IMG/VR virus record: IMGVR_UViG_3300022744_000003
Span: 1-64,000 of that record
Length of the DNA: 64,000 nucleotides
Reading direction: 5' to 3' (one strand)
From: a virus
In this document: positions 2,022 to 56,981 of the stretch, one piece after another
How positions within the stretch are numbered: position 1 is the first letter of the stretch
Layout of the letters: the number at the start of each line of letters is the position of its first letter
Translations under genes and position numbers: made by a program
The notes under the pieces: generated by a model
The model's input: the letters and a program-made list of their open reading frames with translations, nothing else
What the model was told of the DNA's origin: nothing
The model's database searches: none

Positions 2022-2100
2022 ATGCGAATTCGGGGCTGACTTCGCATCAAAGAGCCCGTTGCGCCTCCCCCCACGATGGAGGGAAGGAGGCGATGCAGAC

Positions 2101-2895: not shown

Positions 2896-2906
2896 GGAGG
2901 GACACC

Positions 2907-3332: not shown

Positions 3333-3345
3333 GGAGGGACCTGAC

Positions 3346-4350
3346 ATGCCGAACCCCGTTCAGTCCGACCTGCACGTCAACCAGCCGCTCACGAACGTCT
3401 CGGTCGCGTACGTCCCGAAGAAGACGGACTACATCGCGGACAAGATCTTCCCGATCGTGCCGGTCGAGAAGCAGTCGGACCTGTACCACAAGTACACCAA
3501 GTCCGACTGGCGTCGCACGGACGCGCAGAAGCGCGCGCCCGGCACCGAGGTCGCGCGGACCGGCTACAAGACCACGACCGACACGTACTACGCGTCCGTC
3601 ACGGCTGTGGCCAAGGCCATCGACGACCAGACCCGCGCCAACGCGGACTCGAACTTCAAGCTCGAGTCCGAGGCGACGCAGTTCGTCACCAACCAGCTCC
3701 TGCTCGCTCGCGAGATCGAGTTCGTCTCGACCTTCCTCTCGAGCAGCTCGGGCTGGCTGACGACCTACACCGGCGTCGCGGCGGCCCCGACGACCAACCA
3801 GTTCCTGCAGTGGAACGACGCCGCGTCGGACCCGCTGTCGGACATCGCCGACTGGAAGCTCGCCTTCCGCCAGCTCAACGGCTTCGACGCCAACACGCTG
3901 GTCCTCGGCCCGGTGGTCCGCAAGGTCCTGAAGAACCACCCGGACATCATCGACCGCATCAAGTTCACCCAGAAGGGCATCCTCACCGATGACCTCCTGG
4001 CTGCGCTGCTCGACGTCGACCGGGTCTTCACGATGTACGCGACCCAGGCGTCCGGCCCGCAGATCAACGACCCGGAGGACCAGGACGCTGCGGCGACCTA
4101 CGCCTTCGTCGCTGACGGCGCGGGCAAGACCTGCTGGTTCGGGTACGTCAACCCGACCCCCTCGCTCATGCAGCCGACCGCGGGCTACACCTTCACCTGG
4201 AAGGGGTACGCCGGCAACGACCAGGGCCTGCGCATCAAGCGCTGGCGCGACGAGCGCGTGGAGTCGGAAATCATCGAGGGCGGCATGGCGTACGCCATGA
4301 AGCAGGTCGCGACCGACATGGGCGTCTACATCGCCTCGGCGGTCGCCTGA
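3346..4350 (+). CDS. major capsid protein (lambda gpE-like family)
   Basis: GAGGAGGG RBS. 334 aa. The N-terminus (LTNVSVAYVPKKTDYIADKIFPIVPVEKQSDLYHKY) resembles the Phage_cap_E consensus. Followed by a hairpin terminator. Confidence 0.8.
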   Translation: MPNPVQSDLHVNQPLTNVSVAYVPKKTDYIADKIFPIVPVEKQSDLYHKYTKSDWRRTDAQKRAPGTEVARTGYKTTTDTYYASVTAVAKAIDDQTRANADSNFKLESEATQFVTNQLLLAREIEFVSTFLSSSSGWLTTYTGVAAAPTTNQFLQWNDAASDPLSDIADWKLAFRQLNGFDANTLVLGPVVRKVLKNHPDIIDRIKFTQKGILTDDLLAALLDVDRVFTMYATQASGPQINDPEDQDAAATYAFVADGAGKTCWFGYVNPTPSLMQPTAGYTFTWKGYAGNDQGLRIKRWRDERVESEIIEGGMAYAMKQVATDMGVYIASAVA

Positions 4351-4360
4351 CGTAGGAGCT

Positions 4361-4394
4361 GGGGCCCGTTCCTGAGGCGGGCCCCGGCTTCTCT
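4361..4394 (+). terminator. hairpin terminator after capsid gene
   Basis: GGGGCCCG (4361..4368) pairs with CGGGCCCC (4378..4385). Followed by GGCTTCTCT. Confidence 0.5.
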
Positions 4395-4415
4395 CCCGAA
4401 GGAGGAGGAAGCTTC

Positions 4416-4718
4416 ATGGCGACTCTCGGATTCCGCAAGGGCCCGGCCCGCGGCGGCGCGCACATGCGCGGCACCGTCGCGATCGACCCTGCTTCCATCG
4501 CGGCCGGCGCGTCCGGCACGACCACCGTCACCCTGGCGGGGCTCAAGTCCACCGACATCCTCGTGCTCGAGCCCCCGGCCGCGCTCGAGGCGGGCCTGTA
4601 CCCCAAGGGCGTCATCGCGGGCAACGGCTCGTTCCAGCTCATCCTGGGCAACCCCACGGCCGGCGCCGTGGACGGGACCAGCCGCACCTGGACCTACAAG
4701 GTCTACCGGCTCGTCTGA
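4416..4718 (+). CDS. small beta-rich virion-module protein, unknown
   Basis: GGAGGAGGAAG RBS. 100 aa ORF with high GC3. Confidence 0.6.
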   Translation: MATLGFRKGPARGGAHMRGTVAIDPASIAAGASGTTTVTLAGLKSTDILVLEPPAALEAGLYPKGVIAGNGSFQLILGNPTAGAVDGTSRTWTYKVYRLV

Positions 4719-4728
4719 TCGGGCTTGT

Positions 4729-4765
4729 GGGGCCGGAGATGCTGTAACCGGGCATCCCCGGCCCC
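4729..4765 (+). terminator. nested hairpin (terminator-like)
   Basis: GGGGCCGG (4729..4736) pairs with CCGGCCCC (4758..4765). Contains an inner GATGC/GCATC stem. TTCCC follows. Confidence 0.4.
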
Positions 4766-4782
4766 TTCCCATAGGAGGACCC

Positions 4783-5106
4783 ATGTACGTCGCTCGCCGC
4801 CCCCGCACCATCCTCGGCGTGGCCTACGCCCCCGGTGACGTGATCCCGGACGAGGTCTTCGACGCGCTCCCGCGCGGCTCGGCCCTGATCCGCTCCGGCC
4901 TGGTCGACTACAAGGGTGACAAGAACTACGACCCGACCAGCGTCCGCGCCTCGCGCGCGGCCCGCGCGGCGAAGATCGAGGCTGCCAAGGCCAAGGTCGT
5001 CGAGCCCGCGCCGCCGGTCGCGAAGAAGCCGACGACCAAGGCGGCGGCCAAGAAGGCGGCGCCCAAGCCCAAGACTCTCGTCCCGGCGAAGAAGGTGGCC
5101 TCGTGA
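4783..5106 (+). CDS. protein with histone-H1-like Ala/Lys/Pro C-terminal tail
   Basis: TAGGAGG RBS. 107 aa. C-terminus is AAKIEAAKAKVVEPAPPVAKKPTTKAAAKKAAPKPK. Confidence 0.6.
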   Translation: MYVARRPRTILGVAYAPGDVIPDEVFDALPRGSALIRSGLVDYKGDKNYDPTSVRASRAARAAKIEAAKAKVVEPAPPVAKKPTTKAAAKKAAPKPKTLVPAKKVAS

Positions 5107-5252
5107 ACCCGTTCGGCGTCCAGCACACGCCCATCTCCAAGGGCTCGCCCAAGCTCGGCCTGCGTCTGATCGAGACGTACGGCAAGAAGCCGACCAAGAC
5201 CGTCAGCCAGGTCAAGGCGTCCATGGGTGGGAAGACGAAGAAGGCGTCGTGA
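5103..5252 (+). CDS. small basic protein (49 aa), FGVxH N-terminal motif family
   Basis: GTG overlaps the upstream TGA (GTGA). Translates as VNPFGVQHTPISKGSPKLG...KTKKAS. Too short for the ORF track. High GC3. Confidence 0.5.
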   Translation: MNPFGVQHTPISKGSPKLGLRLIETYGKKPTKTVSQVKASMGGKTKKAS

Positions 5253-5659
5253 TCTCGGCCTTCGGGGTCGAGCACGGAGAGGTCTCCAAGCTCCAGGACC
5301 CCAAGCGCAGGACGGTGCCGGACTGGCTCTCGCCGGTCCTGCCGGCCTCGACCGTGCGCGCGTACGACAAGTCGAAGAAGAACAAGCTCGAGGCGGCTGC
5401 AGGGAACCTCGGCGCCAAGACCATCGGCGGCGCAGCCGGCGCAGCGCTCGGGCTGGGCGCGGCCACCATCGCAGGGAAGAAGATCAAGGTCCTGCGCGAA
5501 GGGGTGAAGGTGGCCGGGCACTCCGTCGACGCCAAGACCCTGCGGGGCTGGACCCAGGCCACCGCATCCTCGGGCGCGGGCGGTGCAACCGGAGGAGTCC
5601 TGGGCGGCGCTCACCTGAGCCGCGTCAAGGAAGACAAGAAGCGCTACGACTACCAGTGA
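5249..5659 (+). CDS. basic Gly/Ala-rich protein (136 aa), SAFGVxH N-terminal motif family
   Basis: GTGA overlap start. Begins VISAFGVEHGEVSKLQDPK. Has a Gly-zipper GGAAGAALGLGAATIAG. Corresponds to the tail of ORF 4916..5659. Confidence 0.6.
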   Translation: MISAFGVEHGEVSKLQDPKRRTVPDWLSPVLPASTVRAYDKSKKNKLEAAAGNLGAKTIGGAAGAALGLGAATIAGKKIKVLREGVKVAGHSVDAKTLRGWTQATASSGAGGATGGVLGGAHLSRVKEDKKRYDYQ

Positions 5660-5705
5660 AGGTTGCTGGCACCCCTAGCCTGACAGTAGGACCACAGGAG
5701 GACAC

Positions 5706-6623
5706 ATGGACGGCAACGTCGGCATGAGCGGCGAGCTCGGCATTCAGCAGGTGGCGTTCGGCGCGCGCGGGCGTACCCCGCACCGCATCCGCCAGATCCG
5801 CACGCCCTTCGGCCGTGTCATGTTCTCCCGCGACCGCGGCGACAGCGTGATGCGCGGCCGCGAGCACTTCGCGACCAACCTGTGCGCGGTGCACCGCGAC
5901 GGCGACGGGCGCATCAAGGACGAGATCGACCTGGGCTCCGGCCTGGTGACCAACGTCGGCGTGCTCGCCATGGCCAACGACTGGGCCTGGCCGACCTCGG
6001 CCGCGACCATCGCGCTGAACACCCTGCGCGTGGCGAACTTCCACGCCACCGGCACCGGCGCCACCGCCGCGGCCGCCACCGACATCAAGCTGCAGACGCC
6101 CTCGACCCAGGGCGGCCAGACGGTCGTCACCGGCACCCAGTCGCTCGTCTCGGCCGCCAACAGCCAGAGCTACCGCACGGTCGCCACGATCTCCTACACC
6201 GGCACCGAGGCCGTGACCGAGTGGGGCCTGTTCACCACGCTCGGCGCGATCGGCGGCACGGCCCTGTCGAGCGCCACCGGCTCGCCGTTCACCGCGGGCT
6301 CTGCGACCACCGGCACCGTGACGGCCACCCCGCTCACCGCGTCCGGCAACGGCACCCAGGGCCAGACCCTGACGATCGTCGAGAACACCGGAAACGCGAC
6401 CCCGCACTGGGGCCTCATCACCTCGAACACGACCTCCGTGGTCACCGTGCCGGCCTGGTACAAGGTCTCGGACGGCACCGCGGCCGGCACCACCCCGGCG
6501 AACACGAACACCCTGGTGTTCCGCCCGGTGATGTGGGACCACAAGGTCTTCTCCGCGATCAACGTCGTCAACGGCGACTCGATCCAGTTCACCTACACGC
6601 TGCTGGTCAACTCCGGCGGCTGA
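5706..6623 (+). CDS. fibre/receptor-binding-like structural protein
   Basis: AGGAGG RBS. 305 aa, Thr/Gly/Ala-rich. The pattern GLVTNVGVLAMANDW...ATGTGATAAAATD...TEWGLFTT recalls the small fibre-module fold seen at 55208, 55645 and 62355. Confidence 0.6.
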   Translation: MDGNVGMSGELGIQQVAFGARGRTPHRIRQIRTPFGRVMFSRDRGDSVMRGREHFATNLCAVHRDGDGRIKDEIDLGSGLVTNVGVLAMANDWAWPTSAATIALNTLRVANFHATGTGATAAAATDIKLQTPSTQGGQTVVTGTQSLVSAANSQSYRTVATISYTGTEAVTEWGLFTTLGAIGGTALSSATGSPFTAGSATTGTVTATPLTASGNGTQGQTLTIVENTGNATPHWGLITSNTTSVVTVPAWYKVSDGTAAGTTPANTNTLVFRPVMWDHKVFSAINVVNGDSIQFTYTLLVNSGG

Positions 6624-6635
6624 TCGGAGCCTGGC

Positions 6636-7571
6636 ATGACGTTCGCCAGCGACGGCAAGCCCCACACCGACGCCCTCGACGCGTTCCTGGCGGCTGCGGA
6701 CTCCACCGTGGCTGCTAAGGACGCCGAGATCGCCGCGCTCAAGGCCAGGATCGCCGAGCTCACCACGCCCCCGCCGGTGGTCGTCCCGCCCACGGGGCTG
6801 CTGCCGTACGCCCCGCCCGCGGGCTGGCAGAACTACCCGAAGATCACGGTGCCCTCCACCGGAGTCGTCTCCGTGCCGGCCGGGACCGACGCGCTGATCG
6901 TCTGCCCGTCGACCATCACTGTGCCGGTCACCATCAAGGGCGGCCGCAACCGGGTGGTGTGGGACCTGCGCCTGGGCGGGCGCACCGCGGTGCCGTCCGG
7001 GTCGTACGACTCGACCAACCGCGGCATCCGCCTGTCCGACGGCGACGACGCGGGCATCGACCACCTCGAGGGGATCTACGGCCTGCCCGGCACGTACTTC
7101 TCGGACTTCATCCAGATCGCGATCCGGACCAACAACCGGCGCGTGGTGCAGATCCAGAACGCGCGCAACGACGGCACCACCTACGGAACCTCCGGCACGG
7201 TGCACGCCGACGTCATCCAGTGCTGGGGCGGCCCCTCGACCCTGCGGGTGCACAACCTCACCGCGAAGCGGATCGGCTACCAGGGCGCCTACATGGACGC
7301 CGGGGACGGGCGCACCCTGCCCGCGCAGCTGGACCCGTGGCGGTTCTCGAACATCAACTTCGTCGGCCTGTCCGGTGCGAAGTACCTGTTCGCCGACCGC
7401 CAGCCGGCCTTCACCCGCGCGACCGCGAGCGAGGTCTTGATCTCCGGCTCGCCGTACAACAACTCCGACTCCTTCGGCAACGCCCCGGCGGGGGTGAAGG
7501 TCGGCACCGTGGCGGACTTCGTGCCCGCCTCGCTGTTCGCTGGTCCGTACGTCTCGCCCGGCTACGTCTGA
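6636..7571 (+). CDS. tail-spike/fibre protein with coiled-coil neck and beta-helix-like C-terminal domain (putative depolymerase)
   Basis: 311 aa. Has an AKDAEIAALKARIAEL neck. The C-domain is paralogous to 56296..56976 (GGRNxVW...GGRTxVPSGSYDSxxRGIR...HADxIQxWGGP...YVSPGY). Confidence 0.65.
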   Translation: MTFASDGKPHTDALDAFLAAADSTVAAKDAEIAALKARIAELTTPPPVVVPPTGLLPYAPPAGWQNYPKITVPSTGVVSVPAGTDALIVCPSTITVPVTIKGGRNRVVWDLRLGGRTAVPSGSYDSTNRGIRLSDGDDAGIDHLEGIYGLPGTYFSDFIQIAIRTNNRRVVQIQNARNDGTTYGTSGTVHADVIQCWGGPSTLRVHNLTAKRIGYQGAYMDAGDGRTLPAQLDPWRFSNINFVGLSGAKYLFADRQPAFTRATASEVLISGSPYNNSDSFGNAPAGVKVGTVADFVPASLFAGPYVSPGYV

Positions 7572-7594
7572 TCCCGATCGCTGAGAGGTAGGCC

Positions 7595-8704
7595 GTGGCC
7601 GACGCAGACGTCACCATCACCGCAGGTACCGGGACCAAGATCGACACCCGGACCGTCGGCGCGGGAACGGACGAGCACCGTCAGGTGATGGTGATCGGCG
7701 ACCCGGTCACCGCGGCGAACGTCGCGTCGGTCACCGCCGCGGGCGAGCTCGAGGTCCGGGTCCCGAACACCATCGGCACCGGAACCATCACCGCGACCGA
7801 CGCCCTCGGTGGTACGCCCGCCCAGACCGGAACCCTGATCTCGACGGCTCCGACGGCATCGTCGTTCGTCGCCATGGCGCTCACGGGCGGCGAGTCCTCC
7901 GTCACCATCCAGGCCACCGGGACGTTCGGGTCGGGAAGCCTGTGGATCGAGGGGTCGCTGGACTCCACCAATGGCTCCGACGGCAACTGGTACCTGCTCC
8001 CGGTCCGCGCCATCGGCGATCTCTTCGCGCCCGGAACGGTCGGGAGCATCACCGCAGGCAGGGCGCTGAGGGTTCCCGGCGGTATGAACTACATTCGCGC
8101 TCGGCTCACGGGCGCCACCGCTCCGTCGGTGTCGATCAGGTTCAGCGCATCCGCCGGCACGCAGGCCGTGAGCCTGTCCGACTACTCCGCCGCGCCCTTC
8201 ATCACGAAGGGCTCGCAGGGCGCGTCGGGATACACCACCCAGGACCTCAAGGACGCCGGACGTACCTACGTCTCGTTCTGGGCCAACGCCGCAGCCGCTG
8301 GCGCGACCGGTGTCGAGACGGCGATCACGCTGACGCGATCCAATGCCACGTTCGGCGGCACTACCTCGACCGGCTCCTCGTTCACCCCGACCTCCGGCAA
8401 GCGGTTCCGCATCCAGCAGATCCTTGTCGGCAGCCGAGGCAACACCACGGCCACCGCGCAGATCACGACGTTCAACTTCCGTGTCAACACGGCGGGTGCG
8501 GTCACGACCACGTCGAACATCATCACCTCGACCGCGACCGCAACGCCGGCTACGGCTCTCGCATGGGACCGCGCGCAACTGATCATCCCGGACGGCCTGG
8601 AGTTCGCCGGAGACGGAACGCTCCAGTGGGGCATCACCGCCGCCGCCACGTTCACGACCAACGCACCGACCTGGTTCGTCAACGTCATCGGCTTCGAGTA
8701 CTGA
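7595..8704 (+). CDS. structural protein with two beta-sandwich-like halves, unknown
   Basis: GTG start after GAGAGGTAGG. 369 aa, Thr/Ala/Gly-rich. Ends WFVNVIGFEY. Confidence 0.6.
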   Translation: MADADVTITAGTGTKIDTRTVGAGTDEHRQVMVIGDPVTAANVASVTAAGELEVRVPNTIGTGTITATDALGGTPAQTGTLISTAPTASSFVAMALTGGESSVTIQATGTFGSGSLWIEGSLDSTNGSDGNWYLLPVRAIGDLFAPGTVGSITAGRALRVPGGMNYIRARLTGATAPSVSIRFSASAGTQAVSLSDYSAAPFITKGSQGASGYTTQDLKDAGRTYVSFWANAAAAGATGVETAITLTRSNATFGGTTSTGSSFTPTSGKRFRIQQILVGSRGNTTATAQITTFNFRVNTAGAVTTTSNIITSTATATPATALAWDRAQLIIPDGLEFAGDGTLQWGITAAATFTTNAPTWFVNVIGFEY

Positions 8705-8719
8705 TCCGGGAGGCCCTGC

Positions 8720-11700
8720 ATGAGCCTCCTCCTGCTGCTCAAGCCGCGGGGGCCGCTGGTCACCACGGGGTCCAGCAGCATCGCCGGCGCAGGCGCGTGC
8801 ACCATCACGCTCCCGACGTACGTGTCCCAGGACGGCTTCGTCTACGTCTTCGCCAGCCGGTCGTCGGTCGGCAACGCGCTGACCAGCATCACCGACACCT
8901 CGGGCGCGACCTGGACCGACATCACCAACAACGGTGCTGCCGGGCCCTTTGACGCGAACTCCTCGTCCCGGCACTACCTGTGGCGCGCGCCGTGGACCTC
9001 GGCGATGTCCGGCGCGGTGGTCACCGTCACCTTCGCCGGGACCAACCAGACCGCACTGGCCTACGCCCGGGTGGAGTGGACCGGCTGCACCCACGACCAG
9101 GTGGTCATCGCCGGTACCGGCGCGGACAGCACCCCGCCGATCAACCTGACCTCCCCGGCGGTGACTGCGGGCGGGTCCGACTCGATCGACATCGCGTTCC
9201 ACGGCGGCCGCGGCACCACGGTAGCCACCTTCACTCAGCCCACCATCAGCGTCACCGCGGCGGGCTGGGGTGGCACGAGCTCGGCGAGCTCGACCAGCAC
9301 CACCGCCACCAACGCCTTCGCGGGTGCGGGCTGGAAGTTGACCAACGGCTCGACCACCATCGCCTCGGCCTCCGACTGGGAGGCCAGCGATTCGGTCAAC
9401 GCCCGGGCCGCCGCCACCGTCACCCTGCTCTACAGCCCGACCGGGTCCACCGCCTACACCCAGGGCGTGTCCGGCACGCTGGGGTTCACTGGTGCCGCCC
9501 CCAAGCGCGCGAACAAGACGCTGGCCGCGACCAGCTCGTTCACCGGGACCGCGCGCAAGGCGACTACGCGCGCCCTGGCCGCCGCGCTCACCTTCGTCGG
9601 GGCCTTCCTGCGCGCCTTCCCCAAGACGCTCTCGGCGTCCCTGGGGTTCGTGGGGTCGACGGCGAAGCGCGCGAACAGGGCACTGACGGCCTCGTCCACG
9701 TTCACCGGCGCCGACACCGCACGGACCTCCCGGGCGCTCTCGGCCGCCGTGGGGTTCGCCGGGTCCACTGCGAAGCGGACGAGCCGCGAGCTGAGCGCCG
9801 CCCTGTCCTTCGTCGGCTCGATCGCCACCGCCCTGATCCCGGGGACCACCCAGTACACCAAGGACCTGGCCGCGACGCTGTCGTTCGCCGGGGCCGACGC
9901 CGCCCGGACGGCCCGCTCGCTGGCCGCGAGCCTGTCCTTCGCCGCGACCGACGCCTTCCGGACGAGCCGGGCGCTGAGCGCCGCCGTGGGCTTCGTGGGG
10001 ACGGCGTCCCGGCGTACCGCCAGGACGCTGGCGGCGGCACTGGGCTTCACCGGGTCGGACACCGCCCGGACCTCCCGCGCGCTGACGGCCTCGCTGTCGT
10101 TCGTCGGGACCACGACCAAGAGCATCCCGCGCGCGCTGGCGGCATCCCTGGGGTTTGCCGGGTCCGTCGCCAAGCGCACGGCGCGGTCGCTGTCGGCGAC
10201 CCTGACCTCGAGCGGGACGACGACCACCAGTTCGGTCCTGACCCGTGCCTTCAGTGCGGCGCTGTCGTTCGCCGGAACAGCGACGAGGCAGACCACCAGG
10301 CCGCTGAGCGCCGCCGCCGGGTTCACCGGGTCGCTGGCCCGCCGCACCTCCCGGAGCCTGTCCGCCGGCCTGAGCACCGCCGGGTCGCTGGCGCGCTCCA
10401 TCCCGTTCCGGCTGAGTGCGGCGCTCGGCTTCGTCGGGGCGGCGACCCGGCGCACGGCGCGCTCGCTGGGAGCCGGGCTCACGTTCACCGGAACCGTGTC
10501 CTCGGCCTCCGTGCTGACCCGCGCTCTCACCGCGAGCTTGTCCTTCACCGGGACGGCCGCGCGCAGCACCGCCCGGCCGCTGGCGGCCGCGCTGTCGTAC
10601 GCCGGGGCGATCTCGCGGCGCACCTCCCGCGCGCTGGCGGCCGGCCTGTCCTTCACCGGGGCGCTGGCCCGCTCGTTCCCGTACCGGCTCACCGCGGCGC
10701 TGTCGTTCACGGGCGCGACCGCCAAGCGGACCGCGCGCAGCCTGGGGGCAGGCCTGTCCTTCGTCGGGTCAGTGGTCTCGACCTCGGTGCTCACCCGGGC
10801 CTTCACCGCCGCGGTCGGGTTCGCCGGGTCGGTGTCCAAGCGCACTGGCAAGGCCCTGTCCGGCGGGCTGTCCTCGGGCGGGACGCTGTCCCGCGCGATC
10901 TCCCGACCGCTGGCTGCGGGCGTGTCGTTCGCCGGCGCGACGGCCCGGCGGACCTCTCGCGCGCTGTCCGCGGCAGCGACCTTCGCCGGGGCGACGGCCA
11001 AGCGGACGAGCAGGTCGCTGGCCGGGTCGTTGAGCTCGGCCGGCACCCTGGGCAAGCAGGCAGGCAAGGCTCTGGGCGCCGCGCTGTCGTTCGGCGGCTC
11101 GCTGGCCCGAACCACCGTCCGGGCTCTGAGCGCCGCCGTGTCCTTCGTCGGGGGGCTGGCCAGCAACCTGGTCGGCGGCCCGGTCTCGTACGTCCAGAAC
11201 CTCTCGGCCACCCTGGGGCTCACCGGGGCGTTGAGCCGCCGTACCTCGAGGAGCCTGGCTGCGGCCGGCGCGTTCACCGCCGCCCTGACCAAGCGGACTT
11301 CGAGGTCCCTGTCGGCGGCATCCGGGTTCGCCGGCGTGCTGGCCAAGCAGACCTGGAAGTCCCTGGCCGGAGCCGCGTCGTACGCCGGGTCCGTCGCGCG
11401 ACGTACCGGGAAGGCGCTCACGGCCGGGGCGGGTTTCACGGGGAACATCGTCCGGCGCACGGCACGGGGCCTGACGGCATCACTCGCCCCGAGCGGCGCG
11501 CTGGCCAAGCAGACCCGGAGGGCCCTGGGAGCCGCTGCGGGCTTCGTGGGCGCCCTGACGCGCTCGCGGACGTATCTCGCAGCCCTGAACGCCTCCATCG
11601 GCTTCACGGGCTCCCTGGCGCGCCGCACGGGGAAGTCCCTGGCGGCCGCCCTCACGTCGTCCGGGACGATCGTCCGGGCGGTCGGCAAGACGCTGGCCTC

Positions 11701-11902
11701 GGCCCTGAGCTTCACGGGAAGCCTGATTTACTCGGGCGGCCAGGCGGCCAAGATCGCAGCCGGGAAGGTCGCAGGCGCAGTGGGGCGGCTGTTCCGCGCC
11801 GACGCGACCGGCGGCCCGGACTCGACCGACGCCACCGGGCTCCCCGGGTCGGGCAAGGGCAAGGGCGGGCCCGGACGCTCCGGAGCCCGGAAGAGGTCTT
11901 GA
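8720..11902 (+). CDS. giant repeat fibre-like protein (1060 aa): globular N-domain plus about 41 x 18-aa basic repeats
   Basis: GGGAGG RBS. Repeat consensus is LSAALSFxGxxxKRTxRx. The opposite-strand ORF 9454..11715 is a shadow ORF. Confidence 0.8.
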   Translation: MSLLLLLKPRGPLVTTGSSSIAGAGACTITLPTYVSQDGFVYVFASRSSVGNALTSITDTSGATWTDITNNGAAGPFDANSSSRHYLWRAPWTSAMSGAVVTVTFAGTNQTALAYARVEWTGCTHDQVVIAGTGADSTPPINLTSPAVTAGGSDSIDIAFHGGRGTTVATFTQPTISVTAAGWGGTSSASSTSTTATNAFAGAGWKLTNGSTTIASASDWEASDSVNARAAATVTLLYSPTGSTAYTQGVSGTLGFTGAAPKRANKTLAATSSFTGTARKATTRALAAALTFVGAFLRAFPKTLSASLGFVGSTAKRANRALTASSTFTGADTARTSRALSAAVGFAGSTAKRTSRELSAALSFVGSIATALIPGTTQYTKDLAATLSFAGADAARTARSLAASLSFAATDAFRTSRALSAAVGFVGTASRRTARTLAAALGFTGSDTARTSRALTASLSFVGTTTKSIPRALAASLGFAGSVAKRTARSLSATLTSSGTTTTSSVLTRAFSAALSFAGTATRQTTRPLSAAAGFTGSLARRTSRSLSAGLSTAGSLARSIPFRLSAALGFVGAATRRTARSLGAGLTFTGTVSSASVLTRALTASLSFTGTAARSTARPLAAALSYAGAISRRTSRALAAGLSFTGALARSFPYRLTAALSFTGATAKRTARSLGAGLSFVGSVVSTSVLTRAFTAAVGFAGSVSKRTGKALSGGLSSGGTLSRAISRPLAAGVSFAGATARRTSRALSAAATFAGATAKRTSRSLAGSLSSAGTLGKQAGKALGAALSFGGSLARTTVRALSAAVSFVGGLASNLVGGPVSYVQNLSATLGLTGALSRRTSRSLAAAGAFTAALTKRTSRSLSAASGFAGVLAKQTWKSLAGAASYAGSVARRTGKALTAGAGFTGNIVRRTARGLTASLAPSGALAKQTRRALGAAAGFVGALTRSRTYLAALNASIGFTGSLARRTGKSLAAALTSSGTIVRAVGKTLASALSFTGSLIYSGGQAAKIAAGKVAGAVGRLFRADATGGPDSTDATGLPGSGKGKGGPGRSGARKRS
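9467..11730 (+). repeat. degenerate 54-bp tandem coding repeat with a 276-bp super-repeat
   Basis: About 41 units. SVLTRA(F/L) units recur at 10232, 10508 and 10784, exactly 276 bp apart. Confidence 0.85.
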
Positions 11903-11923
11903 TCGACAGGGGACGATGGAACT

Positions 11924-12709
11924 GTGACGCCTGACATCCTGCTCCGCTTCGGCAACCGCGCGCCCCTGCTGCAGCGGGTCCTCGAGGTCGACGGCATCGT
12001 CCTGGACCTCACCGACGCGACGGAGGTCCGGTTCAAGGCCTCGGGCGCCTCCGGGGTGGTCATCAGCGGAACCTGCACCATGGCGACCGACCGGACCACC
12101 GGCGAGGTCACCTACGCCTGGTCGGCCCAGGACGCGCTGGTCCCGGCCGGCTTCTACCAGTGCTGGTTCGAGGTCGACTTCCCCGGGTCGGTCGGGCTCA
12201 CCCTGCCCAACGCCACGTACCTCGTCCTGCAGATCACCGCGCTCCTGCAGGGGACCTGGTCCTACTCCGGCGACCCGTCGAGCTCCGACCGCGACGCCGT
12301 GCGGTACTACCTCGGGGACACCGACCCCGACGACCCCCTGGTCAGCGACGGCGAGATCGACTTCCTGCTGGCCGAGTGGCTGCCGGTGTCGAACTCCAAG
12401 CTGATCGTGGCGGCCGTGGCGGCCGAGAACCTCGCCTCGAGGTACGCGCGCGAGGTCGCCGTCTCCGCGGACGGCGTCACGGTCGCGCTCCAGGACCTCA
12501 TGGACCGCTTCCTCGCCCTGTCCGGGCGGCTGCGCTCCCAGGACGCCCAGCGCAACATCGGCGGCCCGGACGTCGGCGGGGTGGACCTCAACGACGTCTA
12601 CGACCCCTCCGTCAAGCCTCTGAACTTCTCGGTCGGGATGCACGACAACTACCGCGGCGGCGGCCAGGGCGACTACCGCGGCGACGAGTACTACGGGGGC
12701 GTGTGGTGA
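11924..12709 (+). CDS. head-tail connector/adaptor protein with N-terminal Ig-like extension
   Basis: GTG start. 261 aa. The C-half DAVRYYLGDTDPDDPLVSDGEIDFLLAEW...AAENLASRYA resembles gp6-like connectors. Confidence 0.55.
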   Translation: MTPDILLRFGNRAPLLQRVLEVDGIVLDLTDATEVRFKASGASGVVISGTCTMATDRTTGEVTYAWSAQDALVPAGFYQCWFEVDFPGSVGLTLPNATYLVLQITALLQGTWSYSGDPSSSDRDAVRYYLGDTDPDDPLVSDGEIDFLLAEWLPVSNSKLIVAAVAAENLASRYAREVAVSADGVTVALQDLMDRFLALSGRLRSQDAQRNIGGPDVGGVDLNDVYDPSVKPLNFSVGMHDNYRGGGQGDYRGDEYYGGVW

Positions 12710-13146
12710 CCTCGATGTCGGCGCGCCACGCCCGCGCCCGCGCCTATGTCCAGCGCCGCGCTGCGGCCGAGATGGACGTGAAGGTCGTCGTACGCCGGAT
12801 GTCCTCGGACGGCGTTCTCGACGAGGCCTCCCTGGTCGTCGTCCCGGTCGCCCAGCAGACCATCTACACCGGCTCCGCCTTCCTGCACTCGATCGGGAGC
12901 GGCGGGGAGATCATGGTCGGGGAGTCCCCGGTCCCGGTCCGCAGCACGGTGATCTCGCTCCCCGCATCGGCGCCGGCTCCCCGGCCGGACGACGTCGTGA
13001 CGATCACGGCCTGCCCCGAGGACGCCACGGTGGTGGGGCTGGGGTTCCGGGTCCGCAGCGTCGAGGGCGGCGGGATCTACCGCTCCACCCGCCAGCTCAC
13101 CTGCACGGTCTGGAGCGATTCTCAGGCATGGGAGCGCGAGGCATGA
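12706..13146 (+). CDS. head-tail joining (head closure-like) protein
   Basis: GTGA overlap start (alternative ATG at 12715). Sensible tail of ORF 12160..13146. Call rests on position between connector genes. Confidence 0.5.
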   Translation: MTSMSARHARARAYVQRRAAAEMDVKVVVRRMSSDGVLDEASLVVVPVAQQTIYTGSAFLHSIGSGGEIMVGESPVPVRSTVISLPASAPAPRPDDVVTITACPEDATVVGLGFRVRSVEGGGIYRSTRQLTCTVWSDSQAWEREA

Positions 13147-13253
13147 TCGCCATCTTCCTGCGGGCCTTCGCGGTCGGCCTGCTCACCGCCCTGGGTGCCG
13201 TGCTGGCGCTGCTGCTCGGCTGGGGCGCGTACGACCGGATCATGGGCCGATGA
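13143..13253 (+). CDS. small single-pass membrane protein (36 aa)
   Basis: ATGA overlaps at both ends. Translates as MIAIFLRAFAVGLLTALGAVLALLLGWGAYDRIMGR. Confidence 0.45.
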   Translation: MIAIFLRAFAVGLLTALGAVLALLLGWGAYDRIMGR

Positions 13254-13726
13254 CCGCGGCCAGCGCCGATCTGCGTCAGCTCGCGCAGGACCTCCGGGCC
13301 GCTACCGGCACACCCCTGGACATGGCGGCCGCCGAGGTCGTCCGACGCGCAGCCGTGCGCGTGCAGGCCTCGGCGATGCAGTTCGCCCCGGTCGCCACCG
13401 GCGCACTGAAGAACTCGATCACGATCCGGTTCGACACCCCCACCTCGGCCACGATCGGCCCCGGGGTGGAGTACGGCCCCTACCAGGAGTTCGGCACCGG
13501 CAGCCGCGGGGAGTTCCCCGGCGCGCCGTACGAGATCCGCCCGAAGAACGCCTCCGCGCTGTCCTTCACGGTCGACGGCAAGCGCGTCGTCACCCAGAAG
13601 GTCGTCCACCCCGGCGTCAGGGCCAAGCGCTACATGCGGCGCGCGGTCAAGGAGGCCCTGGAGCCGCTGACCGCCGACCTGGCCGCCACCGGCGCGCTGC
13701 TGATCACGAAGGGACCGAACGCCTGA
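13250..13726 (+). CDS. HK97 gp10-like head-tail joining protein
   Basis: 158 aa. The motif GVEYGPYQEFGTGSRG matches the gp10-family YA.y.EfGT signature. Confidence 0.7.
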   Translation: MTAASADLRQLAQDLRAATGTPLDMAAAEVVRRAAVRVQASAMQFAPVATGALKNSITIRFDTPTSATIGPGVEYGPYQEFGTGSRGEFPGAPYEIRPKNASALSFTVDGKRVVTQKVVHPGVRAKRYMRRAVKEALEPLTADLAATGALLITKGPNA

Positions 13727-14181
13727 TGGAGCGTCACCCCTTCACCCTGGCGATCACCGCGGGCCTCGAGGCGGCCGGCTTCCCGGTGGGCGTCGCCGAG
13801 CGCCCGGACGGCGGCGGCTGGGAGGGCGAGCCGAACACCCCCCTGGCCGGGCTCTTCCGCCCGTACGTCGTGGTCGTCCCGCTGACCGCCTCGACGAGCT
13901 CGGGGCCGATGGCGGTCGACAGCCAGGGCGACTGGCGCCTGCCCTACTCGGTGACGTCGTACGCCATCCGCGGCGACCAGGTCGAGCGGATCGCCGACCG
14001 CGTTCGCGCCGTCGTCCTTGCGCTCTCGCGGGCCGCGGTCACCACTAGCGGCGGCGGATACCGTGTAGTCAAGGTCAACCTGTCCGCCATCGGGCAGGTG
14101 AACAGGGCGGATCAGACCGACCCGCCGTTCTACGCCCAGACCGACAGCGTCGAGCTGTGGGCAAACAAGGAGCCGACGTGA
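13726..14181 (+). CDS. tail terminator-like protein
   Basis: TGATG overlap start. 151 aa. Lies between the gp10-like gene and the major tail gene. Confidence 0.5.
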   Translation: MERHPFTLAITAGLEAAGFPVGVAERPDGGGWEGEPNTPLAGLFRPYVVVVPLTASTSSGPMAVDSQGDWRLPYSVTSYAIRGDQVERIADRVRAVVLALSRAAVTTSGGGYRVVKVNLSAIGQVNRADQTDPPFYAQTDSVELWANKEPT

Positions 14182-14456
14182 GCGACATGACCTGGGTCTT
14201 CCACCCCACCCTCGTCCGCTGGTCCGAGATCGTGGACGAGTCCGTCCCCGTCTGGGAGGAGGCGGGCTGGGAGCACCGGCCCGAAGGCCCTGCGGTCGAC
14301 GAGTCCGGCCGCTACTCCGAGGTCGAGCTGGCCGCCCGTGCAGCCCAGCTCGGCATCGCGGCTGTCGAGCCCGAGGCCGGGGTTTCGATCGAAACTCCGG
14401 AGAAGGAGCCCTCGACAGAGCCCGCATCCTTGAAGAAGGACAGCGGAAAGCCGTAG
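14178..14456 (+). CDS. hypothetical acidic protein (92 aa)
   Basis: AAGGAG RBS. GTG overlaps the upstream TGA. In frame with ORF 14157..14456. Confidence 0.5.
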   Translation: MSDMTWVFHPTLVRWSEIVDESVPVWEEAGWEHRPEGPAVDESGRYSEVELAARAAQLGIAAVEPEAGVSIETPEKEPSTEPASLKKDSGKP

Positions 14457-14468
14457 GAGGACTGACCC

Positions 14469-14951
14469 ATGGCACGCATCATCCCGAACGACGCGAGCTA
14501 CATCTGCTTCGCGTCGTCTGGCGGCGTCGCTTCGGCGTCGCTCATCCCGACCGCCGCCGAGGTCACCGCGTCGGTGAACCTCACGCCGTTCATCATGAGC
14601 CTCACGGCCTCGACCCAGGGCAACGTGATCCCGACCCCGAGCTTCGACTCACTGTTCGAGACCTCGGCCGTGGGCACGAGCTCCGCGTCGTTCTCGATGG
14701 ACTGCTACCGCGACGACACCGCCGACACCGCGTGGACCACGCTTCCGCGCAAGACCAAGGGCTTCGTCATCATCTCGCGCTTCGGCGGCTCGGGCGCGCT
14801 GCGCAAGCCGACCACGGGCAACGTCGTCGAGGTCTGGCCGATCATCGTGACCAGCCGCTCGATGGCCGGCATGAGCAACAACACGGTCCAGAGCTTCACG
14901 GTGACCTGCGCGGTGCCGACCGAGCCCAACGAGGCGGCGACCGTCACCTGA
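14469..14951 (+). CDS. major tail (tube) protein
   Basis: AGGAGG RBS. 160 aa beta-rich protein immediately upstream of the chaperone pair and tape measure gene. Confidence 0.65.
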   Translation: MARIIPNDASYICFASSGGVASASLIPTAAEVTASVNLTPFIMSLTASTQGNVIPTPSFDSLFETSAVGTSSASFSMDCYRDDTADTAWTTLPRKTKGFVIISRFGGSGALRKPTTGNVVEVWPIIVTSRSMAGMSNNTVQSFTVTCAVPTEPNEAATVT

Positions 14952-15075
14952 TCGGGGCCGGTGGGGGCACCCAACTGGCGAGGGCAGTACTTCGGGCCGA
15001 GGGGACCCGAGGTGCTGTCCTCGTCGCTTTGCGGGCTCTACGATGCGATCAAGATCCCCCACCGAGGAGAACCCC

Positions 15076-15537
15076 ATGGCCAAGAACGACGTAATCGACG
15101 CGGACCTGGACGTCCGGACCGGCGACGCCGACGTGAAGAAGGACCCCATCACCAGCATCCCGCGCGCGACGCTGAACGACCTGCAGGGCAAGAAGCGCGC
15201 CGAGCGCGAGGTGGCGGTCGAGATCCCCACCGAGGCCGGGCCCAAGAAGGTCTCGTTCCTGTTCCGGGCGATCAGCCGCAAGGCGTACGACGCCCTGGTG
15301 GACGAGCACCCGCCGACCAAGACCCAGCAGGCCAAGGGCGAGTCGTTCAACGTGGACACCTTCGCCCCGGCGCTGCTCGCGGTGGTCTGCATCGAGCCCG
15401 AGCTCGAGGTGTCCGCCTGGGCGAAGTTCTGGAAGAGCCCCGACTGGTCCCCGGGCGAGCTCAGCGGCCTGTTCTACACCGCCGCCGGTCTGTGCAACAC
15501 GGGCTTCGAGCTGGTCCCTACTACCGCGGGCGACTGA
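15076..15537 (+). CDS. tail assembly chaperone (G-like)
   Basis: GGAGAA RBS before ATG 15076 (the ORF track start 15043 is less likely). Acidic 153 aa. Canonical position. Confidence 0.65.
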   Translation: MAKNDVIDADLDVRTGDADVKKDPITSIPRATLNDLQGKKRAEREVAVEIPTEAGPKKVSFLFRAISRKAYDALVDEHPPTKTQQAKGESFNVDTFAPALLAVVCIEPELEVSAWAKFWKSPDWSPGELSGLFYTAAGLCNTGFELVPTTAGD

Positions 15538-15563: not shown

Positions 15564-15899
15564 ATGAGCGTGGCGGCGAAGTACTCCATCCCGCACAGCG
15601 AGTTCATGGCCTGGGACTCGGTCGACCAGGCCAAGGCGATCGCCTTCCACCTGCACGAGGCGGAGAAGTGCACCTTGTGCGGCACGGCAGACTGGGAGTG
15701 GGATCCCGAGCAGGGCGGGGCCCGCTTCGCTTACGAGCCGGTGGAGAAGGTCTGCATGGGCTGCTACACCAAGCACGACATGGGCGGGGGCGGCCCCGGC
15801 TCCTACCTGACCCTGCTCCCGGCCGGCACCCCCGAGGCCGCACGCCGCCACGTCGCGGCGGAGCGCTCCGCTCGAGTCCGGGCGGCGCGCAGTGAGTGA
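15564..15899 (+). CDS. tail assembly chaperone T-like segment with CxxC...CxxC zinc ribbon (possibly fused to G by -1 frameshift)
   Basis: -1 frame relative to the G gene and open through it. Contains EKCTLCGTADWEW...KVCMGCY. No SD before ATG 15564. Stop overlaps the tape measure start. Confidence 0.5.
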   Translation: MSVAAKYSIPHSEFMAWDSVDQAKAIAFHLHEAEKCTLCGTADWEWDPEQGGARFAYEPVEKVCMGCYTKHDMGGGGPGSYLTLLPAGTPEAARRHVAAERSARVRAARSE

Positions 15900-18800
15900 G
15901 GAGACCCGGGACGCCAACGTCCGCCTCACCGCGGACGTCCAGCCCTACCGCCAGGACGTCGCGGCGGCCGCGGACGACACCACCAAGCTCGCCGCGGCCG
16001 TCGACGTCCTGGCGTCCAAGCTCGACGGCCTGGGCAAGCGCACCGGCAAGAAGCTGACCCTGTTCGCCGCCGCCGACCTGGCGATGATGGGCGGCATGGT
16101 CGCCGTCACGGCGAACTACGAGAAGCAGCTCGGCACGCTGTCGGGCCAGGCCGCGGTCACCGGCAAGAACATCGGCGCGCTGAGCACCAGCATCCGCCAG
16201 GCGAGCCGGGACATGCCGGTCGCGCGCGACGAGGTCGTGGCGCTGACCACCGCCATCTCCAAGATGGGCGTGACCAGCCAGAAGGACCTCGCGTCGTTCA
16301 CCACGACGTTCCTGAAGGCCTCTGCGGCCACCGGGGACTCCGCGCAGGGCCTGGCGTCCTCCATGACCTCCCTGAGCCGCCAGATGGGCACCCTGGGCGG
16401 CGGGGGCAGCCAGATGCGGGCCTTCACCGACTCGCTGGTCAAGGTCTCGGCCACCGCCGGGGTCTCGGCGCAGAGCGTGGCCGACTTCGCGAACTCGATC
16501 GCGCCGTTCGCCCGGGTCGCCGGCATCGGCCAGAAGCAGGTCCTGGGCCTGTCCTCGGCCTTCGTCCAGGCCGGCAACGACGGCTTCGCCGCGGCGAACA
16601 CCTTCAACACGATGCTGGCCGACATCGTGCGCCAGACCTCGAGCGGCGGCCCCGGGCTGGCCAAGTACGCATCCCTGGTCGGGGTGACGGTCGACGAGTT
16701 CAAGAAGCTCGACTCGTCCCAGCAGGTCGTGAAGATCTTCAAGGCGATCAACGACGCCGGCCCCCAGGCCGTCCAGGTGCTCGACCAGATGGGCTTCGAC
16801 GGCATCCGCGCGGCCAAGGCGATCCAGACCATGGCGGCGCAGTCCGGCGGCCTGGAGAAGCTCGTCAACGCCGCGGTGGGCGGCTACGGCGACGACTCGA
16901 CGAACAAGGGCGCGGAGGCCGCGATGAGCGGCTTCGCGGACGAGATGATCCGCGCGGGGAACATCGCCAAGGACATGGCGACCTCGATCGGCTCGGGCAT
17001 CATCACCCCCCTGACCTACGGCCTGGGCGTCCTGAACAACATCACCGCCGAGGCGTCCAAGCTCACCGGCATCTTCGCCGCGGGCGGGGCGCTGGCGGCC
17101 GCGGGCGGGCTGGCCTCCGGCGCGGCCGGCGGCATCATGCAGGTCGCGAGCATGGCCGCGGTCCCCGCAGGCATCCGCTGGCTCTACAACTCCTCGCCCC
17201 TGGGAGCCTTCCGCGAGGGCCGCCGGGCCGCGGCCGCAGCCAAGAACGGGATGAGCATCCCGGACGGCCCCTACATCGACCGCTACACCGGCGGCCGCGC
17301 CGGGCGCCTCGAGGGGATGGGCTTCGCCTCCGGCGCCGCCGTGGGCGACATCTGGGGCGGGAACAACGGCGGCCGGGGCATCGTGCAGAAGGCGAGCTCG
17401 GCCTTGGGCTTCCTCCCGCGCATGGTCGCAGTGGGCGCGAACTTCCAGTCCGAGTTCTACGACGAGTCCCGCCAGCAGGGCTACCAGCGCGGCAACCAGA
17501 CCAGCCTGTGGTCGGGCATCCGCGCGGCCGCGAGCTCGACGGACTCCTTCACCCGCTCGACGCTCAAGGCCACCGCGGCGCTGGCCAAGTTCGAGTGGTC
17601 GGCGGCCAAGGCCGGCGTGAGCGCGGGCGGCGCCGTCGCCGGCAGGGCGCTGGGCAAGCTCGGCGGCGCGGCCATGGACTTCCTGGGCGGACCGATCGGC
17701 ATCGCGGCGATGGCCGGTATCGCGGCGATCCAGGTCAAGAGCATGAACGATGAGCAGCTCACCGCGCTGCGCGACCGCGCCAAGGACCCCAACGCCTACA
17801 ACCAGGCGTCGCCGTACGCCGCGGCGCTGGGGACCGCGTCCTCCTCGCTCTCGGACATGACCCTCATGGTCGGCAAGAGCTCCAAGGAACTCGACTCGCT
17901 CGCCGCTGCGGCCGCGAACGCCCGGAACGGGATCATCGCCGGCGGCGCGACCAACCCGAACACGGCGTCGATCACAAACAAGGACCAGGCGGTCTCCTAC
18001 CTGCGCTCGCTGGGGGCGAACAGCAGCCCGGAGACGATGAACCTCGCCTTCGCCGACGTCCGGCGCGCGCTGCCCGGCCAGGCGGGCAAGGACGCGATCG
18101 ACGCCTACATGCGGAACCCGACCTCCACGGTCACCCTGGGCGACATCTCCAACGCCGCGGGGAACATCGGCAACTCCGACGTCTCGGGCATCGGGGAGCG
18201 GCTGGGGTTCACCCTGTCCGGGGACGCCGACCGCAAGACCCAGATGGGCCTGGGCGCGGCGCTGCAGTACGTCTCGCAGTACTCCAAGTTCGGCGACGCG
18301 AACGTCCAGGAGCAGGCCAAGGTCAACGCCGCGGTCACGATGCTCGACGCCGCCCTCAAGGGCGGGACCGCCAACGACGACCCGGCCACCCGCAAGGCCC
18401 GCGTGGCGGCGGTCGCCCAGGTCGAGCAGCTCCTCGGGGTGGACTTCAAGTACAACGCGGCCAACGGCTACGGCTCGGCCGCCGAGCTCCTCGGCGCGCA
18501 GGACGCGGACTCGACCTTCGGGAACTACCGGACCAACAACCCGAACCTGGTCTTCTCCGGCGGCCAGGCGGGCCAGACGGCCCTGTACCGGCTCGCGGTC
18601 ACCAACACCGACCCGGGCGTGCTCGGGCTGCGCGGGCGGGGGGTGGACCTGCAGAGCGGCTACCTCGGGGACGCGGTCACCCGGATCGGGGACTCGACCG
18701 TCCAGAACAAGGCCGTGCTCGAGCTCTACAAGATGGCCAAGGAGAAGGGCGGCGGCTCGATCGCCAAGGCCGACAGCGTCCTGCAGGGGATCCTGGCCGA

Positions 18801-56976: not shown

Positions 56977-56981
56977 TCTGA

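Follow-up and report, generated by a model that had tools for sequence, protein, structure and literature searches.

The 64,000-nucleotide window analysed here (positions 1 to 64,000 of the IMG/VR virus record IMGVR_UViG_3300022744_000003) contains at 8720-11902 on the plus strand a gene for a protein of 1060 amino acids, in which a globular N-terminal domain is followed by an array of 41 basic 18-residue units and a basic tail. The array is predicted to fold into a single-chain β-solenoid, one coil per unit, and we give about an even chance to the explanation that the protein is a shaft-bearing, modular external fibre or adhesin of the virion. β-Solenoid fibrous adhesins of phages as such are already known; the libraries and literature searched contain no description of the 18-residue basic repeat family, with its charge, punctuation and use as a scaffold, or of the family of a linked gene, o5706.

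Architecture of the repeat protein

The repeat gene, its subdivisions and the overlapping antisense frame are as follows (aa, amino acids, counted in the repeat protein where a range is given; ORF, open reading frame; GC3, G+C content at third codon positions; pLDDT, predicted local distance difference test score).

8720-11902 (+), repeat gene, complete ORF of 1060 aa: N-domain, 41-unit array, basic tail
8720-9448 (+), N-terminal globular domain (N-domain), aa 1-243
9449-9859 (+), array segment A, aa 244-380, 7 units, opening with the long-unit motif TAYTQGVSGTLGF
9812-9868 (+), 25-aa punctuation ('long unit') VGSIATALIPGTTQYTKDL between segments A and B, with 25-aa spacing
9860-11194 (+), array segment B, aa 381-825, blocks of 7, 5, 5 and 7 units split by 20-aa variant units
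10244-11071 (+), three super-repeats of 92 aa (276 bp), aa 509-600, 601-692 and 693-784
10298-10903 (+), 11 units (aa 527-728) modelled as a β-solenoid with AlphaFold2 (AF2)
11147-11203 (+), second 25-aa punctuation VGGLASNLVGGPVSYVQNL between segments B and C
11195-11740 (+), array segment C, aa 826-1007, a more degenerate stretch of 7 + 3 units
11741-11899 (+), Gly-rich basic C-terminal tail, aa 1008-1060, net charge +7, ending in ...GRSGARKRS, predicted to be disordered (pLDDT < 50)
9454-11715 (-), antisense ORF of 753 aa with a GC3 of 0.94, spanning the array and having its third codon positions in common with the sense frame

A hidden Markov model (HMM) of the unit locates 41 units at aa 248-1007 (DNA ~9461-11740), in agreement with the sequence-only reading of the window, in which about 41 tandem 18-aa units had been proposed at 9467-11730. 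Successive units start 18 aa apart with the exception of four spacings of 20 aa (units starting at aa 509, 601, 693 and 954) and two of 25 aa (units starting at aa 381 and 826), and the array is laid out in blocks of 7 / 7, 5, 5, 7 / 7, 3 units. In the autocorrelation of the protein, residue identity at lag 18 amounts to 0.339 compared to 0.126 ± 0.011 in shuffled sequences (z = 18.8), while the best lags at the DNA level are 54 and 276. The three long units that had been picked out by the same reading are also present, as TAYTQGVSGTLGF at aa 244, ...IPGTTQYTKDL at aa 365-383 and ...GGPVSYVQNL at aa 810-828.

The 276-bp repeat had been described as exact. This description holds for its spacing and register and for the positions of the motif SVLTRA, which starts at 10232, 10508 and 10784, but not for its sequence, since the three 92-aa super-repeats are only 64, 46 and 42% identical to each other as protein and 67, 57 and 55% as DNA. 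Single units share 60-75% of their DNA sequence, and Tandem Repeats Finder (TRF) picks up merely one two-copy stretch of the array. As units and super-repeats have diverged in DNA and TRF barely detects the array, it is regarded as old and kept at the protein level, not as the product of recent slippage.

The composition of the repeat region is dominated by Ala, Ser, Thr, Leu, Gly and Arg. It contains 93 Lys/Arg versus 6 Asp/Glu residues, corresponding to a net charge of +87 and to ~2.3 Lys/Arg per unit; the net charge of the whole protein is +91 and its pI 12.0. In some members of the family the charge per unit is as low as +0.8. The consensus of 679 canonical units reads [RK]-A-L-[TAS]-[AG]-x-L-S-F-[TVA]-G-[AS]-x-x-[KR]-R-T-x, with Leu at position 7 in 87%, Phe at position 9 in 91%, Gly at position 11 in 94% and Lys/Arg at position 15 in 89% of these units. 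Phe9 is the lone aromatic residue of the unit. At the C-terminus, the nearest relatives (P0004, P0005 and P0007) end similarly to the window protein, in ...RSRARKP.

The window has a G+C content of 69%, and the GC3 of the 8720-11902 (+) frame is 0.94 along the entire ORF, N-domain included. The frame runs unbroken from the non-repetitive N-domain into the array and has the same orientation as the neighbouring late genes. An identical protein is encoded on the 75,449-bp Logan contig SRR7614061_3289. In relatives with lower G+C content the antisense ORF falls into pieces of ~90-300 aa while the sense ORF is intact, and the plus frame is therefore taken as the gene; the antisense ORF, not being conserved in these relatives, was rejected as a gene and is regarded as a GC shadow.

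A repeat family of uncultivated phages

No match for the repeat protein was obtained in Pfam (E ≤ 1), PHROGs (E ≤ 0.1) or NCBIfam, and a sequence profile search of the Protein Data Bank (PDB) with the repeat alignment returned only a chance match to tubulin (E = 0.036), which bears out the earlier impression that the repeat lies outside the described families. None of 50,697 isolated phage genomes contains the repeat according to megablast and tblastn searches with the whole protein and a tblastn search with the less biased array of a homolog. Literature searches on 18-residue phage fibre repeats, basic β-solenoid fibres and head fibres retrieved nothing that describes the repeat of the window protein; in a paper on phage 7-7-1 the head-fibre proteins are still unidentified (PMC12796354).

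A collection of 5.8 billion proteins yielded 67 homologs of 589-1758 aa, and 46 further, shorter ones (90-381 aa) were found by profile search, all of them annotated as 'hypothetical' and all with the unit and punctuation of the window protein. By means of a DNA pattern covering three units, 34 true members with the same unit and the same punctuation were recovered on IMG/VR contigs. When genome contigs were scanned with this pattern, about 6 of the 69 matches were true, all on contigs of metagenome-assembled genomes, the rest being mostly due to chance, and no true match occurred in any isolate genome. Over all loci, the G+C content of the repeat gene ranges from 30 to 72%.

Taking the window protein and the 67 homologs together, the 18-aa spacing occurs 708 times. 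The two variant units are family traits as well: the 20-aa variant (consensus xGxLxxxxxFxRAL) is found in 128 cases family-wide, four of them in the window protein, and the 25-aa variant (consensus VGNLATxxxGGAxxYTQxL) in 21 cases, two of them in the window protein. Array length varies between ~10 and 44 units among the members, many of which have arrays broken by globular inserts of ~225-290 aa, and these inserts differ even between close relatives.

Predicted fold

In an AF2 model of the array and tail (aa 244-1060), the mean pLDDT is 54 overall, with a strictly periodic β structure of pLDDT 70-80 at aa ~433-753. The DSSP assignment per unit in this whole-array model is five strand residues, two others, five strand residues, three others, one strand residue and two others. 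A Foldseek search with the model gave no useful match. For the 11 units at aa 527-728, the modelling was based on in-register windows of 38 other arrays aligned to each other. The resulting model is all β with a pLDDT of 77.8 and a predicted template modelling (TM) score of 0.68, and each unit consists of one long bent strand, or of two 5-residue strands, plus a one-residue bridge. A periodic fold, which the sequence-only reading had expected in preference to disorder, is thus supported at the level of prediction.

In a Foldseek comparison of the 11-unit model to the PDB, the matches listed are mostly parallel β-helices and solenoids, among them the pectinase 3lyc, tapirin, the two-partner secretion (TPS) domains of HxuA and EtpA, GlmU, LpxD, an ice-binding protein and FapC, with a best E-value of 0.64 and TM-scores below 0.4. 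Neither in the PDB nor in BFVD, where the best E-value was 0.027, did the 11-unit model find any match at E ≤ 0.001. The fold is predicted to be a single-chain β-solenoid with 18 residues per coil and without a close known relative.

In solenoid geometry each coil accounts for 4.8 Å, so that 41 coils correspond to a rod of ~20 nm. Leu3, Ala5, Leu7, Phe9 and Thr17 would be packed inside as the core and Gly11 would occupy a corner, whereas the Lys/Arg residues 15, 16 and 1 of successive units would be in register and form one uninterrupted basic ridge.

Comparison to known repeat folds and fibre systems

The parallel β-helices of tailspikes and adhesins, which comprise pectate-lyase-like folds, TPS and autotransporter passengers and tapirins, are composed of stacked parallel coils that form a rigid rod in surface-binding proteins, as is predicted for the window repeat. 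However, known parallel β-helix shafts have ~22-25 residues per coil compared to 18 in the window repeat, and unlike them the latter is highly regular, polycationic and punctuated by 20- and 25-aa units, with the globular domains of the family sitting between coils. The right-handed β-helix profiles Beta_helix and Pectate_lyase_3 gave no match in Pfam, and the best Foldseek match of this kind has an E-value of 1.1 and a TM-score of 0.29.

The left-handed β-helix (LbH) of GlmU and LpxD has 18 residues per coil too, but these proteins are trimeric enzymes, not fibres. Their Foldseek matches are weak (E 2.8-9, TM-score < 0.21), and the DSSP pattern given above is compatible with a triangular 18-residue coil. 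The array displays no hexapeptide sub-period (lag-6 z = -0.5), as would be expected from three [LIV]-[GAED]-x2-[STAV]-x hexapeptides per coil, and no Hexapep match in Pfam. The RTX β-roll with its GGxGxDxUx nonapeptides was considered and rejected, the lag-9 z-score being -3.1 and the calcium-binding Asp residues too few (5 Asp in the 767 residues of the repeat region). With neither a 6- nor a 9-residue sub-period the array has the repeat pattern of neither a hexapeptide LbH nor an RTX roll.

A likeness to the triple β-spiral of the adenovirus fibre and reovirus sigma1 had been noted on account of unit length. Like the window repeat, the repeats of these viral fibres are short (15-18 residues), alternate in hydrophobic residues and contain a conserved Gly; yet their pseudo-repeat is ~15 residues as opposed to a period of 18, and the window repeat is far more basic. 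No triple β-spiral family matched in Pfam at E ≤ 1 and no β-spiral entry is found among the 40 PDB matches of Foldseek. The triple β-spiral is an obligate, intertwined homotrimer; the AF2 prediction, made for the monomer, is a single-chain β-solenoid with one coil per unit.

Three further systems are comparable in function or construction. The choline- or cell-wall-binding repeats (CW_binding_1) of Gram-positive surface proteins and phage lysins are solenoid units of ~20 aa with multivalent binding to teichoic-acid decorations. The analogy is a functional one only: they are aromatic-rich β-hairpins with aromatic cages, as opposed to the putative Lys/Arg ridge and single aromatic Phe9 of the window repeat, and the window protein has no CW_binding_1 match in Pfam and no homology to these repeats. 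T4 Hoc, phi29 gp8.5 and the fibres docked by gp77 of phage GP4 are accessory, adsorption-promoting fibres encoded among head and neck genes, but Hoc consists of Ig domains strung together and gp8.5 forms a helix-turn-helix supercoil, neither of which resembles the 18-aa repeat. Finally, the functional amyloids CsgA and FapC, the latter among the weak Foldseek matches, also consist of imperfect tandem repeats of ~20 aa, each forming one solenoid layer, but they contain Gln/Asn ladders and few repeats, polymerise end to end and have no sequence similarity to the window repeat.

Domains joined to the repeat

According to precomputed Pfam assignments, 14 of the 67 homologs contain a Laminin_G_3 domain. 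GDPD (P0002, P0007), Beta_helix (P0048, P0050) and FG-GAP/VCBS domains (P0024) are fused to the repeat in others, and P0009 has a weak GH97_C match inside its repeat array. Carbohydrate-binding and teichoic-acid-cleaving modules work on the host surface. At the C-terminus of the homolog P0012 (aa 735-821), a domain of the GP4 gp77 fibre-tail adaptor family was detected (E 2e-7, 31.9 bits, cutoff 27), which by Pfam is absent from the window protein. In GP4 this adaptor forms a ring of 15 copies around the head-to-tail adaptor and mounts the fibres (PMC11445570).

The N-domain of the window protein has no relative in the PDB or Pfam and none among the 67 repeat homologs. Six relatives exist among 1.84e9 representatives, where it is joined to other repeat types and a β-helix-like domain. 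It is probably a distal or variable module.

The window encodes a second carrier of the repeat.

56982-58979 (+), Laminin_G_3 protein of 665 aa, second repeat carrier, beside Gp80-type fibre genes

Its N-terminus is the long-unit motif TAYTQSLSATLGF, followed by Laminin_G_3 and then by one clear and two weak units (aa ~250-290). Since this protein carries units, the 18-aa repeat is common to two proteins of one phage. The adjoining genes match the Pfam family Gp80 (fibre I of podophage GP4) at 55094-55645 with E 2e-20 and at 55645-56976 (443 aa) with E 2e-5, the latter below cutoff. Gp80-type proteins at 55094-56976 (+) are encoded in a genome with an otherwise siphovirus-type tail. By eye, the product of 6636-7571 looks like a paralog of the C-terminal half of the 55645-56976 product. 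The domain that they share (…GGRN.VVW…GGR…PSGSYDS..RGIR…) is, again by eye, the β-helix-like one of the N-domain relatives and is recognizable in the metagenomic protein P0070, which has the N-domain of the window type twice. The shared domain of these three proteins is probably a β-helix-like enzymatic or receptor-binding module.

The linked gene o5706

Upstream of the repeat gene lies the partner gene o5706.

5706-6623 (+), partner gene o5706, 305 aa, linked to the repeat gene across loci

A comparison of 44 family loci found homologs of o5706 in 29, where they have the orientation of the repeat gene and are separated from it by 0-4.5 kb and 0 to 3 genes; in the loci without it, the repeat gene mostly lies at the edge of the locus and the flank is missing. 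Its family comprises at least 1969 clusters (at 90% identity) in metagenomes, the best 120 of which show 59-100% identity; across relatives of the window phage, identity is 60-88%. The product is built of a ~150-aa core with an optional insert of ~90 aa. A C-terminal Gly-Gly is found in each of the 20 sequences aligned and in all but one of the 120 homologs listed. No relative of o5706 was found in Pfam, the PDB or isolated phages, and no fusion of o5706 to the repeat among 239 retrieved proteins. An assignment as a Gp80-type domain was rejected (Pfam E 0.077 in 1 of 20 members, hhalign probability 0.2%, empty HMM search of the window). From its linkage we infer that o5706 encodes an assembly or anchoring partner of the repeat protein. 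In one IMG/VR contig (L101, 3300037264_002801, 323-9514 (-)), two repeat-family genes of 309 and 935 aa flank the o5706 homolog, which shows that a single cassette can encode several repeat proteins.

Position of the repeat gene in late operons

The cassette formed by o5706 and the repeat gene is found within the late operon of the window, of which the following genes are relevant here.

2907-3332, scaffold-like gene
3346-4350, major capsid protein (MCP), phrog_1005, E 2e-86, pI 5.2
4783-5106 (+), basic protein of 107 aa, pI 10.3, just after the capsid gene
6636-8704 (+), variable cassette genes between partner and repeat gene: 6636-7571 (311 aa) and 7595-8704 (369 aa)
11924-12709 (+), acidic protein of 261 aa, phrog_1732, directly after the repeat gene
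14469-14951, tail tube
15892-20064, tape measure, 1390 aa

Between the MCP and the repeat gene the order is two small ORFs, 5706-6623, 6636-7571 and 7595-8704. The gene directly downstream (11924-12709) encodes a probable head-tail connector and is followed by a DUF6093-like gene and by an HK97 gp10-like neck gene at 13250-13726. Beyond the tape measure the genes of the window are on the opposite strand, and no distal tail genes follow on the plus strand. The cassette encodes no acidic partner for the +91 repeat protein. The 4783-5106 protein has a Lys/Ala/Pro-rich tail of histone-H1-like appearance (…AAKAKVVEPAPPVAKKPTTKAAAKKAAPKPK…) and no family match. The large protein encoded after the MCP in Arthrobacter phage Kovu (gp31) was tested as a relative of the window ORFs 5706, 6636 and 7595 and found to be unrelated.

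The setting in related loci is as follows.

L003: syntenic with the window
L100: protease, MCP (phrog_10), 124 aa, o5706, repeat gene, 104 aa, head-tail adaptor (weak match), further on the tape measure
L109: TerL, o5706, 248 aa, repeat gene, 90 aa, head-tail joining protein, portal, MCP (phrog_617)
L090 and L005: portal, o5706, then the repeat gene with no ORF (L090) or three ORFs (L005) between
L095: o5706, intervening ORFs, repeat gene, 223 aa, T7 gp12-like tail protein
L006: cassette flanked by capsid-region genes on one side and by the Phage_tail_S and tube genes on the other
L004/L119 and L125: cassette at the end of the late operon

From its position across these loci, the repeat gene is always part of the virion module and mostly located at the head/neck junction. 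The cassette co-occurs with at least three MCP families (phrog_1005, phrog_10 and phrog_617). In L005, the contig of the homolog P0012, the genes just downstream of the repeat gene (10822-15507) encode a topoisomerase IB/InPase fusion, an ADP-ribosyltransferase toxin-like protein and a Mu F-like protein, a group that resembles effectors ejected from the virion or contained in it.

Proposed function and alternatives

A role as a virion fibre, already suggested by the sequence-only reading, fits the late-operon position of the gene as well as the lectin, enzyme and adaptor domains fused in homologs. As a fibre or adhesin, the protein would form one solenoid coil from each 18-residue unit, and its 41 coils would give the ~20-nm rod, cut into three segments by the two 25-aa units and containing the 20-aa units as 'stutters'. 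The rod would act as a scaffold into which relatives splice Laminin_G_3, GDPD, β-helix and FG-GAP modules between unit stretches; in the window protein the rare 243-aa N-domain would take their place. By its polycationic ridge the rod might bind polyanionic, teichoic-acid-like polymers of the cell envelope in a multivalent manner of low specificity, with the globular modules contributing specificity or hydrolysis. A cell-surface ligand is favoured over nucleic acid because of the GDPD and lectin domains fused in homologs. Furthermore, the variable array length and the differing inserts are typical of free-standing receptor-binding fibres, and the second carrier of the units in the window is encoded among Gp80-type fibre genes. 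The fibre would be assembled with the 5706-6623 product and mounted on the head/neck region, not at the tail tip, probably via its C-terminal end. Mounting on the neck or head is favoured because of the gene position and the gp77 fusion, and 'tail fibre shaft' may name the wrong location, given that the gene is in the head/neck part of the operon and that Gp80-type genes are found at 55094-58979.

Several observations weigh against this explanation. The protein is placed in the virion by its gene context, and none of the 50,697 isolated phage genomes carries the repeat. The net charge of +91, for which the cassette offers no acidic counterpart, is extreme if the fibre is exposed and would be just as fitting in a protein that binds nucleic acid. 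The link to the gp77 adaptor depends on the single homolog P0012, and the C-terminal ends are diverse family-wide, which makes the anchoring end uncertain. A position in the head module is equally compatible with a decoration protein. Finally, an alignment of in-register repeat windows cannot tell intra-chain from inter-chain contacts, and the array may form a trimeric, intertwined fibre.

The strongest competitor, which we nevertheless consider unlikely, differs in location only: the protein would sit at the tail tip or baseplate as an ordinary distal tail fibre or receptor-binding protein, with the array as its shaft and possibly as a homotrimer, and the gene position would be uninformative. 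Modules of the lectin and GDPD kind are characteristic of receptor-binding proteins, and the Laminin_G_3 protein encoded beside the Gp80 fibre genes contains units as well. In L004/L119 and L125 the repeat gene ends the late operon, the usual place of a fibre gene, and in L095 it lies two genes upstream of the T7 gp12-like tail protein gene. However, in the siphovirus-type loci (window, L003, L006 and L100) the repeat gene precedes the genes of connector, tube and tape measure and does not lie downstream of the latter; past the tape measure, the genes of the window are on the other strand, and the adaptor domain found in one homolog docks at the neck.

Rather improbable is an internal or DNA-associated virion protein, a polycationic rod that condenses or escorts the packaged genome with a ridge matching the phosphate backbone. 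The pI of 12.0, the charge of +91 with ~2.3 Lys/Arg per 4.8-Å coil and almost no acidic residues, the basic disordered tail and the location of the gene in the head module, downstream of the small Lys/Ala/Pro-rich basic protein at 4783-5106, agree with such a role. In contrast, the lectin, GDPD, pectate-lyase-like β-helix, FG-GAP and adaptor domains held by homologous arrays act outside the particle, the charge falls to only +0.8 per unit in some members, and array length is very variable. Unless hundreds of copies were present, +91 per copy would also be negligible compared to the ~150,000 phosphates of the genome.

Still less credit is given to a capsid cement or decoration protein, in which the rod, being basic, would be stretched out along the acidic capsid surface and stabilise the shell, anchored via the o5706 protein, with its globular domains pointing outwards as in T4 Hoc. 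The repeat gene follows the gene of the MCP, the MCP (pI 5.2) is acidic and the rod basic, and the partner gene is strictly conserved. Against this stand the occurrence of the cassette with three or more MCP families and arrays of ~10-44 units with large inserts, variable even among near relatives, which are ill-suited to a fixed lattice.

Equally speculative is a wider view of the linkage, according to which o5706 and the repeat gene are a mobile, lineage-independent cassette for a virion appendage and the coils are self-templating cross-β docking elements to which proteins of one to three units add by strand addition. The cassette is found with the three or more MCP families named above and in both siphovirus- and podovirus-like genomes. 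Proteins with one to three units, such as the 56982-58979 product with its single N-terminal 'long unit', would then cap or extend the polycationic rod, receptor-binding modules could be exchanged in a plug-in manner, and the Gly-Gly terminus of o5706 would be essential for anchoring or a covalent link.

An artefact, be it an ORF read in the wrong frame of GC-rich DNA or a disordered Ala/Ser/Thr/Arg region of low complexity, could be suspected from the overlapping 753-aa antisense ORF of equal GC3 and from the composition, but is effectively refuted by the position-specific conservation of the unit (Phe 91%, Gly 94%, Leu 87%), the AF2 model (pLDDT 78) and the conserved sense frame, which is open in relatives of 30-72% repeat-gene G+C in which the antisense frame is broken.

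Fibres and adhesins decide which cells a phage reaches, and the catalogue of fibre folds comes almost wholly from cultured phages. Among uncultivated phages both the repeat and the o5706 family linked to it are widespread, yet neither is contained in Pfam, PHROGs, NCBIfam, the PDB or the 50,697 isolated phage genomes. If the proposed fibre is correct, it would represent a new type of β-solenoid (18 residues per coil, a Lys/Arg ridge and programmed stutters), a scaffold that accepts spliced lectins and hydrolases and a new head/neck appendage system. Profiles of the unit and of o5706 could label thousands of 'hypothetical' virion genes in annotation pipelines, and the rod is a candidate polyanion-binding module for engineering.

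Other genes of the window

Just past the tape-measure gene, 21806-23275 (-) encodes an AAA / nSTAND3-like NTPase of 489 aa, which is unusual in a phage and might have a role in defence or counter-defence. Replication-type proteins are encoded on the plus strand at 35280-36518, a DnaB-like helicase, and at 40441-43206, a 921-aa DNA polymerase III alpha subunit with PHP, NTPase, finger and HhH domains.

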